Below are positions 17,263-20,200 of a stretch of 64,000 bases of DNA, in pieces. The translations under genes and the position numbers were made by a program. This DNA comes from an uncultured Solirubrobacterales bacterium (GTDB lineage Bacteria; Actinomycetota; Thermoleophilia; Solirubrobacterales; Solirubrobacteraceae). A model generated the notes under the pieces. That model saw nothing but the letters and a program-made list of their open reading frames with translations, had not been told where the DNA came from and did no database searches. Position 1 is the stretch's first letter; the number at the start of each line of letters is the position of its first letter. Location: assembly GCA_963702725.1 (NCBI GenBank), contig CAVPDT010000001.1, forward strand, positions 41,803-105,802, in the 5' to 3' direction.

Positions 17263-20200
17263 ATGACTACGCACACCATGCAGCCGCCCAAGGCCGTCGG
17301 TCTCTACGACCCCCGCTTCGAGCACGACGCGTGCGGCGTGGGCATGGTCGCGCGCTTGGACAACACGCCCACGCACGAGGTCGTGGAACGGGGGATCGTC
17401 GCGCTGAAGAACCTCGAGCACCGGGGCGCATCGGGCGCCGACCCCTGCACGGGCGACGGCGCGGGGATCCTGATGCAGATACCCGACGAGCTGCTGCGCG
17501 CGCTCGTCGAGTTCGAGCTTCCGCCGGCCGGGCGCTACGGGGTGCTGATGTGCTTTCTGCCCACCGAGGGGTCCGGCCGCGCGCGACTGCAGGAGCTGCT
17601 GGAGCGGATCGTCGTGGCGGAGGGTCAGACGGTGCTCGGCTGGCGCGAGGTGCCGGTGGCGCCGGAGCACACCGGGGAGGTCGCAGGGGCATGCCGGCCG
17701 GAGATCCGCCAGCTGTTCGTGGGCGCGGGGCCAGAGCAGGCGGATGACCAGGACGCCTTCGAGCGCAAGCTGTACGTGATCCGGCGCGTATGCGAGCTGA
17801 GCCCGGAAGGGCAGGGGCTGTACGTCGCATCGAGCTCTTCGCGCACCCTCAACTACAAGGGCATGCTGATCAGCTTCCAGCTGGCCGAGTTCTATCCCGA
17901 CCTGCAAGACGAGCGCTGCAAGAGCGCGCTGGCGCTCGTGCACTCGCGCTTCTCGACGAACACGTTTCCGAGTTGGGAGCTCGCCCACCCTTACCGCACG
18001 ATCTGTCACAACGGCGAGATCAACACGGTGATGGGCAACGTCAACTGGATGCGCGCGCGCGAGTCCGAGCTCTCAAGCGAGCTGTTCGGCTCCGATCTGG
18101 CCAAGATCCTGCCGGTCGTGACGCCGGGCAACTCGGACTCGGCGACGTTCGACAACGTGATGGAGCTGCTGCTGCTCGCCGGGCGCTCGCCCGCGCACGC
18201 GGCGATGATGATGATCCCCGAGGCCTACCGCGACCGCGAGGACCTGCCTGCGGACCTGGTCGGGTTCTACGCCTACCACGCCTGTCTGATGGAGCCGTGG
18301 GACGGGCCGGCGTCGGTCGCGTTCACCGACGGGCGGGTCGTCGGCGCGACGCTCGACCGCAACGGGCTGCGTCCGGGCCGGTGGGTGGAGACCTTCGACG
18401 GTCACGTGGTGCTGGGGTCGGAGACGGGCATGCTCGACGCCGCGCCGTCGGAGATCAAGCGTCTGGGGCGGTTGCAGCCCGGCAAGCTTTTCCTCGTCGA
18501 CCTGCAGCGCGGGCGGATCGTCGAGGACGGCGAGGTCAAGCGCGAGGTTTCCACGGGCAAGCCCTACCGCGAGTGGTTTCAGCGCAGCTCTGTCGCCTTC
18601 GAGGAGCTCGAACCCTCCGAGCAGGTGACGATCTCCGATCAGCCCCTGCCCCGGCGCCAGCGCGCGTTCGGCTACAGCCAGGAGGATCTGCGCGTACTGC
18701 TGACGCCGATGGCGCGCGACGGGGCCGAGCCGATCGGCTCGATGGGCAACGACATCTCCCTGGCGGTCCTCTCCGACCAGGCGCCGCCGCTGTTCTCCTA
18801 CTTCAAGCAGCTGTTCGCCCAAGTCACCAACCCGCCGATCGACCCGATCCGCGAGGAAATCGTGATGTCCTTGGAGACGACCCTGGGCAGCGAGCGCAAC
18901 CTGTTCGAGGAGACGCCAGAGCACGCGCACAAGCTCGTGCTGGAGCGCCCGATCCTGCTCAACCGCGAGCTCGAGACGCTGCGCCACGTCTCGCACGAGC
19001 TGTTCAGCGCGACCACGATCGACATCACCTGGCCCGTCGCCGAGGGCGCCGCCGGGATGGTGGCGGCGCTCGATCGCGTGTGCGAGCAGGCGCACGAGGC
19101 GATCGCGCAGGGCGTCAACATCATCGTGCTCTCCGACCGTTCGATCGGTCCGCGGCGCGCACCGGTCCCCTCGCTGTTGGCGGTCGCCTCGGTACACCAC
19201 CACCTGGTGCGCGAGGGCACGCGGTTGCGCGTCGGCATCGTGCTGGAGTCCGGCGAGCCGCGCGAGGTGCACCACTTCGCGACGCTGATCGGCTACGGCG
19301 CGAGCGCGATCAACCCGTATCTGATGCTGGAGACGCTCGACCAGCTCGTGATCGACGGACGGATCACACCGGCCGGCGCCGACGGCGCGGTGCCGCCGCG
19401 GGGCGAGGAGCTGAACGCCCAGCTGGAGCAGGCGGCGCAGAACACGGTCAAGGCGATCGGCAAAGGGCTCTTGAAGACGATCTCCAAGATGGGCATCTCC
19501 ACGATCCAGTCCTACCGCGGCGCGCAGATCTTCGAGGCCGTCGGGCTGGAGCGCGAGCTGATCGATCGCCACTTCACCGGCACCGCCTCACGCATCGGCG
19601 GGGTCGGTCTGGACGTGCTTGGGACAGAGGCGCTGGAGCGCCACGGGCGCGCGTATCCGGCGCCCGAGGAAGACCTGCTGCCGGTCGGCGGGGTGTACGC
19701 GTGGCGGCGAGACGGCGAGCACCACATGTGGAACCCCGAGACGATCGCGCTCGTCCAGCACGCCGTGCGTGCCGGAGGGTTCGGGGATGCCGGCCGAAAC
19801 GGGGATGCTCGCGTCAGCGAGCGTCACCCGGCTTCGGCAGCGAGTGTCTCCCGGTCCCTCGACGGCAACGTGAGGGCGGCGCTGAGCGGCGAGGCGCAGG
19901 CATTGGAGGAGGTGCGCGGTAGCGACGCGTATGGGAAGTATCGGGAGTATGCGCGCCAGGTCAACGAGGACGCGGCGCGCAAGGCGACGCTGCGCGGCCT
20001 GCTCGAGTTCGGGCCTCCCGCCGGCGGCGCAGGTGCGCGTGAGCCGATCGCGCTGGAGGAGGTCGAGCCCGCGAGTGAGATCGTGCGGCGCTTCTGCACC
20101 GGCGCGATGAGCCTCGGCTCGATCTCGCGCGAGTCCCACGAGACCCTGGCGATCGCGATGAACCGCCTCGGCGGGCGCTCGAACACGGGCGAGGGCGGGG

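Follow-up and report, generated by a model that had tools for sequence, protein, structure and literature searches.

Glutamate synthase gene gltB and its insert

The stretch of DNA analysed here, referred to as the window, comprises 64,000 nucleotides (nt) of the forward strand of contig CAVPDT010000001.1 from an uncultured Solirubrobacterales bacterium. Its gltB gene, an open reading frame (ORF) for the large subunit of glutamate synthase, contains a long palindromic sequence (Table 1) that is very probably a copy of a dispersed family of mobile palindromic elements, inserted in frame. The Pfam domains GATase_2, Glu_syn_central (aa 464-763), Glu_synthase (aa 888-1252) and GXGXG are all present in the product, for which 7mfm, 1ea0 and 1ofd are the best solved relatives among the homologues in PDB, and the gene is predicted to encode a complete large subunit despite the insert. 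The element occupies residues 837-868 (numbered from 17263), between Glu_syn_central and Glu_synthase, a position that corresponds to the linker joining the central and FMN domains of GltB. This segment is lineage-variable and has no counterpart in solved glutamate synthase (GltS) structures. About 49 GltB residues are without counterpart in the GltS of B. subtilis and Azospirillum; about 20 of these form a loop common to the whole Solirubrobacterales-like clade, and the other 28 are private to the window. The clade loop (NG[DN]VxAALxG[DE]xxAxxxVRxSxA, approximately 20 residues, 19860-19925 and orthologues) is independent of the repeat and is absent from other actinobacteria and from the solved structures. 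An AlphaFold2 model of a 257-aa fragment (mean predicted local distance difference test score, pLDDT, 56) renders the insert as a coil between helices with pLDDT < 50. The initial annotation of this DNA had placed the insertion in a surface loop; the location in a variable inter-domain linker agrees with this, and exposure at the surface, on a model of such low confidence, goes no further than plausible.

The extent of the insertion was defined by codon-level comparison with orthologues that lack it (loci L119-L126, L131, L143 and L149). In these the sequence is CGC GCG GGC AAC GGC AAC GTC (RAGNGNV), and in the window it is CGT GCC GG/A GGG TTC ... TCC CT/C GAC GGC AAC GTG, with slashes at the borders of the added bases. 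The motif RA(A/G)NG(N/D)V is found at the insert position in all 80 metagenome orthologues and in L088. The 28 added residues are hydrophilic, and the ORF stays open. An insertion of 96 nt had been proposed initially; the alignment confirms an insertion that the closest relatives lack and reduces its net size to 84 nt, the length of a nested doublet (see below). The outermost 5-7 nt on each side of the 96-nt stem are native gltB sequence, by which the stem is extended by chance. All 80 loci recovered in the metagenome scan for gltB relatives are empty, with no further filled site among them, and a second protein search centred on the insert detected no further filled GltB. Gene calls for gltB in related metagenome-assembled genomes (MAGs; P0016, P0056, P0057, P0066, P0091 and others) are fragments of 200-450 aa with frameshifted tails (RRSSRRARSS...), probably owing to indel errors of long-read assemblies; these fragmentary calls narrowed the comparison at the protein level. 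None of the public sequencing runs searched is from the source organism, the best sharing only 19% of words.

Centred on GCTCGC-GTCA-GCGAGC, the 96 nt form one long hairpin with an imperfect stem; the sequence, its coordinates and frame, the 32-codon peptide and the imperfect stem rich in G-U pairs are as first described. The RNA fold of the plus strand has an energy of -65.6 kcal/mol as compared with -44.3 ± 3.5 kcal/mol for 200 dinucleotide shuffles (z -6.1), none of which folded as well (0/200), and the DNA fold has an energy of -33.1 kcal/mol (z -4.3). The complementary strand folds less well by approximately 10 kcal/mol (-56.0 kcal/mol, z -4.9) in keeping with the many G-U/G-T pairs on the plus strand. 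Over 7,988 segments of 96 nt across the 64 kb (mean -38.8 kcal/mol, sd 7.7) the minimum, reached in a tie, is the value of the element, -65.6 kcal/mol. A very G+C-rich stretch at 55177-55350 (GGCCGGGGCCGGGGCCGGCGTCGCCGGCCCCGGGG...) supplies the remaining 96-nt folds of highest stability in the window (-62 to -65.6 kcal/mol). The G+C content of the element is 73%. Its codon usage was noted early on to be unlike that of the flanks, and G+C at third codon positions (GC3) is indeed 0.72 in the element versus 0.92 in gltB; the 32-codon segments of lowest GC3 in gltB (0.69, starts 19750-19768) overlap the element.

Table 1. Features of gltB and of the insert, with window coordinates
Feature	Position	Strand	Description and basis
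gltB, glutamate synthase large subunit	17224..22017	+	intact ORF of 1597 codons; likely start ATG 17263
Whole hairpin	19771..19866	+	imperfect stem of ~40 bp, loop GTCA; folding
Bases GCCGG, assigned to native gltB	19771..19775	+	pair with 19860-19866, lengthening the stem
Net insertion versus empty orthologues	19776..19859	+	84 nt = 28 codons; boundaries ambiguous by ~3 nt
Outer unit, left arm (GGTT flank type)	19778..19795	+	GGTT-CGGGGATGC-CGGCC; ungapped match to L021 and L032 composites; family consensus
Heptamer GCCGGCC before inner unit	19789-19795	+	last 7 nt of outer left arm
Inner unit (GAAA flank type, 43 nt)	19796..19838	+	GAAA-CGGGGATGC-TCGC-GTCA-GCGAG-CGTCACCCGG-CTTCGGC; nhmmer match 19788-19839
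Hairpin loop GTCA	19813..19816	+	folding; CGTCAG tip also in L032 composite
Outer unit, right arm	19839..19859	+	A-GCGAG-TGTCTCCCGG-TCCCT; comparison with family copies and composites
Bases C GAC GGC, assigned to native gltB	19860..19866	+	pair with 19771-19775

Extent, anatomy and genic copies of the hairpin family

The pattern CGGGGATGC-N(1-31)-AGYGTCWCCCGG was searched in 185,579 genomes (one per species) and gave at least 118 loci. At least 99 of these are in MAGs of Solirubrobacterales/Solirubrobacteraceae, many of which hold several loci among the matches listed. The matching MAGs come from many studies and include both Illumina (k141/MEGAHIT, SPAdes) and Nanopore assemblies. A nhmmer profile of 92 copies in other genomes finds the unit in 99/99 of the Solirubrobacterales loci and matches the window once (19788-19839, E 1.5e-11). 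The other 19 matches listed are in scattered taxa, without conserved flanks; as candidate copies they were rejected as chance occurrences, the profile finding the unit in 0/19. Two matches in viral contigs, without the family flanks, were also rejected as chance. Judged by profile and flanks, the family is confined to Solirubrobacterales among the matches listed, and it is probably a dispersed, non-autonomous palindromic repeat of this order (Actinomycetota, class Thermoleophilia). Beyond the seed copies, 14 further clusters were found in 770 kb, approximately one per 55 kb.

The basic unit is a hairpin of 45 nt, or of 43 nt in a variant with a shorter tip, and has the structure GAAA-CGGGGATGC-(tip stem-loop)-GAGTGTCTCCCGG-CTTCGGTC. 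The family consensus reads GCTGGCC-GAAA-CGGGGATGC-(GAGCC/TCGCC)-GRA-GGCGAG-TGTCTCCCGG-CTTCGGTC; the shorter tip is GAGCG-RA-GCGAG, and a flank variant reads GGCC-GGTT ... T(T/C)CGGY. In every copy the unit lies directly 3' of a GCTGGCC-like heptamer (≥ 90% per position), and most columns are ≥ 90% identical in 90 aligned copies from different species. Wobble pairs are conserved as well (U.G in 88/90, G.U in 78/90). The consensus DNA hairpin is stabler in the plus orientation (-21.6 versus -17.2 and -15.5 versus -10.9 kcal/mol) because of these conserved G-T wobble positions. Only 3/16 pairs show any covariation, the copies being too conserved for compensatory changes, and the structure therefore rests on thermodynamics and symmetry. 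The consensus is free of stop codons in all six frames. A second Solirubrobacterales repeat family, approximately 115 nt in length (GGCAAGC..CAAGGACGCAGGGAGCGTGGCGTGCTG / AGCACGCGAGCGACCGAGGACGC), often carries the 43-nt unit exactly at its palindromic centre, as seen from the filled L022:7304-7360 and from L016:3722-3737 without the unit, and at approximately 22 further loci; the unit is found in either orientation relative to this repeat (L026, L053, L060, L077).

Compared with the family, the gltB insert reads as a nested doublet, a 43-nt unit within the tip of a 41-nt outer unit. Nested composites from unrelated loci of other genomes match the 96 nt over their whole length with no gap (L021, 75/96; L032, 73/96). 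In the 8 composites examined (window, L009, L021, L032, L046, L067, L090 and L100) the inner unit starts right after GATGC(T/C)GG(C/T)C, by which the tip arm of the outer unit supplies the GCTGGCC-like heptamer, and once the inner unit is taken out, a normal single unit remains. In tandem arrays (L062) the period is 45 nt, and the 3' end of the preceding unit (CGGTC) occupies the place of the heptamer. The outer stem of the window, GGAGGG/CCCTC, differs from the consensus GGCCGG/CCGGCC by changes on both sides that preserve pairing. Either half of the doublet (43 + 41 = 84 nt) would by itself break the reading frame, which suggests that the doublet entered gltB in one step. A three-level nest of approximately 150 nt is present at L032:443-544 (empty counterpart L117), where the arm of a further unit contains an inverted nested doublet. 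An artefact of assembly or sequencing, such as a fold-back chimera of long reads, might be suspected from the many Nanopore MAGs among the related genomes and from their gltB calls broken by frameshifts. Such an origin can practically be dismissed, as the reading frame is preserved, the family is present in assemblies of both kinds from many studies, and the geometry of the insert is exactly that of the composites elsewhere.

Copies of the family are located both between genes and inside them, 33/114 clusters (~29%) being in ORFs that continue without a stop for ≥ 150 nt in either direction and have GC3 ≥ 0.8. Ten hosts besides gltB are confirmed by Pfam: carbamoyl-phosphate synthase large chain (CarB), a DEAD/Helicase_C (RecG-like) helicase, NuoN, a cyclopropane-fatty-acid-synthase-type methyltransferase (CMAS), methylmalonyl-CoA mutase (two species), CoaBC (two different sites), phosphoglucose isomerase (PGI), a histidine kinase, DUF1385 and DUF2804. 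The coding copies are found in both orientations and all six frames, with a stereotyped peptide from each: GRNGDAS..., LAETGMRAEGECLPASV and WPKRGCEPEASVSRLR from the plus orientation and DRSRETLASGEHPRFGQ, EAGRHSPSASIPVSAS and PKPGDTRLRLASPFRP from the minus orientation. The orientation of the element relative to the coding strand is at most weakly biased (p 0.058). Among single copies, 21/50 with a 33-nt core (45-nt unit, 15 codons) are in ORFs versus 0/30 with a 31-nt core (43-nt unit; Fisher p = 9.6e-6). A frame filter thus acts on which copies occur in ORFs. Filled and empty orthologous sites differ by a net 45 or 42 nt. Tip-deleted remnants seem to exist elsewhere, for example in CoaBC of L011 (LAEAGTAPAS versus LAERGM...CLPAS in L092).

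History at the gltB site and proposed mode of spread

The nearest relatives of the window, L119 and L120 (92.8% aa identity over approximately 400 flanking residues), are empty at the gltB site, as is P0128, the flank of which is nearly identical to that of the window. In L090 the same gltB codon is filled in the opposite nesting order (GAAA-type outer, GGTT-type inner), and the nearest relatives of L090 are empty (L088, 94%; L131, 92.9%). A shorter form, GRNGDASVSRS, is present at the site in P0019. This patchy pattern could have arisen by separate insertions into a hot spot or by clean losses that happened repeatedly; independent gains are favoured, since the doublets of the window and of L090 differ in architecture. 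The native gltB site GCC AAC GGC GAC G resembles the left arm of the unit, GCCGAAACGGGGATG, a likeness that may, post hoc, explain the recurrence at gltB. Units are also present at the gltB-gltD junction in L088 (2945-2993) and L090 (7398-7442, nested or double), and the equivalent position of the window (~21977-22013) is empty.

The resemblance of the native site to the left arm would also be expected if the element were a quasi-palindrome generated locally, by template switching or inverted duplication during replication of gltB, and the presence of a single copy in the window fits such an origin. It is nonetheless very improbable, being refuted by the family: other genomes have the 43-45-nt sequence at ≥ 99 further loci, and composites from unrelated loci match the entire 84-nt composite collinearly. 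The position of the insert exactly in the inter-domain linker, the better fold of the mRNA-sense strand and the extra loop of ~20 aa already present here in the clade, as compared with other bacteria, could be taken to indicate that GltB has a functional extension specific to the lineage, or that gltB is regulated by an mRNA structure, through a translational pause at the domain boundary or through mRNA stability. A gltB-specific function is improbable as the explanation of the insert, given that the nearest relatives are without it and that the element occurs also in unrelated genes, in both orientations to transcription, and between genes; a secondary effect on gltB expression is possible.

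In the mechanism proposed for the mobile element, the units would spread as single-stranded DNA hairpins with the help of an enzyme acting in trans, for which an HUH/Y1 transposase (RAYT or IS200/IS605 type) is the most plausible candidate. They would enter 3' of the heptamer and leave the target unduplicated. A resident unit would offer two imitations of this target: its tip arm (GCTSGCC), which would lead to nested forms, and its 3' end (CGGTC), which would lead to 45-nt tandem arrays. In genes, selection would retain only insertions with a length that is a multiple of three and that lie in tolerant loops. Filled sites gain a net 45 nt, fewer than the 52 nt that are conserved, and the nested and tandem junctions are seamless if insertion is modelled 3' of the heptamer. 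HUH/Y1 chemistry is judged the best known fit because of the conserved asymmetric hairpin, the fixed heptamer, the seamless nesting and the lack of a visible duplication; an HUH mechanism specifically is possible rather than probable.

Several observations weigh against an inserted mobile element of this type. E. coli RayT, used with phmmer and jackhmmer, gave no match in 6,637 six-frame ORFs of the 118 loci (~0.94 Mb) and the window. No target-site duplication was seen in 8 filled-versus-empty comparisons at 6 sites, in which the flanks are only 60-93% identical and the junctions are not base-exact. With such junctions, the GCTGGCC heptamer may be either the target or a piece of the element itself. 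The local GC skew in the orientation of the element is weakly biased (mean -0.016, t-test p 0.004; negative at 52/93 loci and positive at 41/93). A second copy in the window was not detected by blastn-short, repeat search or nhmmer; further copies, a check for which had been proposed in the initial annotation, were found in other genomes and not in the window itself, where about one copy is expected in 64 kb because the density is approximately one cluster per 55 kb. Finally, orthologous copies in an O-antigen-ligase-like gene (L091/L101/L058) and in the mutase gene (L015/L095) are 88-98% identical versus 60-91% for their flanks, a difference inflated by ascertainment with an exact 21-nt pattern. 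Copies that outlast their flanks are unexpected of neutral junk and leave room for host function, gene conversion or repeated self-targeted insertion.

The main rival of the mobile-element reading, or else its complement, is that the hairpin is a host-functional DNA motif kept by selection, for example one bound or processed by a nucleoid protein, gyrase or a replication/repair factor, or a DNA-uptake-type signal, with the coding copies as a tolerated by-product. The very high conservation across species-level genomes, the greater conservation of orthologous copies than of the surrounding coding DNA, the conserved wobble positions and strand asymmetry, and the moderate density of the extra clusters are all in line with a host signal. 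However, the estimate of conservation is biased by the exact-pattern search, and nested or tandem self-insertion, patchy orthologous presence and location in loops of unrelated enzymes are marks of spreading elements. A host role is also compatible with mobility, the REPs of E. coli being both mobile and host-used; as the explanation of the family it is considered unlikely. With regard to the mobile element itself, it is put forward as a tentative idea that the 45-nt hairpin is a self-targeting, sequence-policed module, moved by an unrecognised single-strand DNA enzyme that would home to GCTGGCC-like sites, among them the tips of resident copies. This would account for nested doublets acting as units, for the identity of 88-98% versus 60-90% in host genes, and for the independent colonisation of the same gltB codon in at least two lineages with empty nearest relatives. 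If true, the family would amount to a hairpin insertion system that is site-specific and of a new kind, or to a DNA signal selected by the host, and would routinely write 15-residue cassettes into enzymes.

Comparison with known repeats and significance

In-frame colonisation of unrelated enzymes by Rickettsia palindromic elements (RPEs) is described as unusually frequent in Rickettsia (Ogata et al. 2000, summarised in PMC10969869). The initial annotation had compared the gltB insert with RPEs, and the likeness is borne out by the occurrence of the family between genes and in frame in many unrelated conserved genes. Shared with RPEs are the palindromic hairpin repeat, the repeated in-frame and stop-free copies in unrelated conserved enzymes, the stereotyped peptide in a tolerated region, and the lack of a known linked transposase. 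In contrast to the AT-rich obligate intracellular alphaproteobacterium that hosts RPEs, the host here belongs to a free-living soil actinobacterial order of 70% GC. The unit measures 43-45 nt (84 nt when nested) as compared with ~100-150 bp in RPEs, and it is read in all six frames whereas each RPE family has one conserved peptide. Nesting into its own tip, 45-nt tandem arrays and very high cross-species identity are further differences. Rickettsia genomes are AT-rich, and homology of an element with 73% GC to RPEs is therefore implausible; host, length and composition set the two apart. The element is closest in behaviour to RPEs and is a member of neither the RPEs nor the REPs (repetitive extragenic palindromic sequences).

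REP, BIME and REPIN sequences are mobilised by RAYT tyrosine (HUH) transposases (PMC3116915; PMC3733652). Some REPs lie inside genes, and a GTAG or CGTC tag is found at the end of the palindrome (PMC3733652); the compound form, REPIN, is an inverted doublet (PMC3116915). The present family resembles REPs as a short G+C-rich imperfect palindrome with conserved mismatches favouring one strand, apparently with tens of dispersed copies, and with compound forms. It differs in that the consensus, GCTGGCC-GAAACGGGGATGC...GTCTCCCGGCTTCGGTC, has no GTAG or CGTC end tag, CGTC being only internal in a minority variant, and in that it is not essentially extragenic, the in-ORF clusters lying in long GC3-rich ORFs. 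The compounds are nested or head-to-tail tandem rather than inverted doublets, and no RAYT was found beside any sampled copy.

Transposons of the IS200/IS605 family recognise a hairpin on one strand and insert 3' of a short specific motif, which remains directly beside the element, without target duplication. The constant position of the unit after a GCTGGCC-like heptamer, the gain of 45 nt of 52 conserved and the absence of a visible duplication are similar. On the other hand, the motif is 7 nt long here versus 4-5 nt, there is one hairpin instead of two subterminal ones, and no transposase gene was identified; the resemblance, drawn by analogy, would be mechanistic. [quoted passage not shown] Like these, the present element is small, non-autonomous, bounded by inverted repeats (the whole unit is one inverted repeat) and able to make in-frame fusions. 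These MITEs measure 100-300 bp, originate from DDE insertion sequences, and show both target duplications and distinct terminal inverted repeats, whereas the element here is 45 nt and wholly one stem-loop, and no duplication or parent insertion sequence was seen in the sampled loci.

Apart from the gltB insert, the window contains a 166-nt sequence in two 100% identical copies (15993-16158 and 63300-63465), 47 kb apart. This sequence is itself a long palindrome with the termini GGGATAGGCC/GGCCTATCCC (DNA fold -56.4 kcal/mol, z -5.5), and the pair looks like a second, unrelated MITE-like repeat of the same genome. Four direct copies of CTCGGATTGCGGA-like boxes with a spacing of 23 nt are present at 23766-23849, just upstream of an ORF starting at ~23843/23871, and look like a putative array of regulator binding sites. 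Rfam models at gathering thresholds gave no match in the whole window.

No description of such repeats was found in the literature on Solirubrobacterales and Thermoleophilia, and the repeat family is apparently new; the paper on signature indels of Thermoleophilia makes no mention of glutamate synthase. The inserts can pass for lineage 'signature indels', depress GC3 locally and may disturb gene calling and assembly. The fixed heptamer, the seamless nesting and the strand asymmetry suggest the action of a specific enzyme of single-stranded DNA, for which a search is possible. The family shows cleanly how a frame filter acts on mobile DNA, and its dozens of natural insertions of 15 and 28 residues in well-studied enzymes (GltS, CarB, PGI, NuoN, the RecG-like helicase and methylmalonyl-CoA mutase) form a data set on protein tolerance. 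Palindromic repeats that invade conserved enzymes in frame have been regarded as peculiar to Rickettsia (PMC10969869). The occurrence of RPE-like behaviour in an abundant, free-living, high-GC order of soil bacteria indicates that it is not tied to reductive intracellular evolution.

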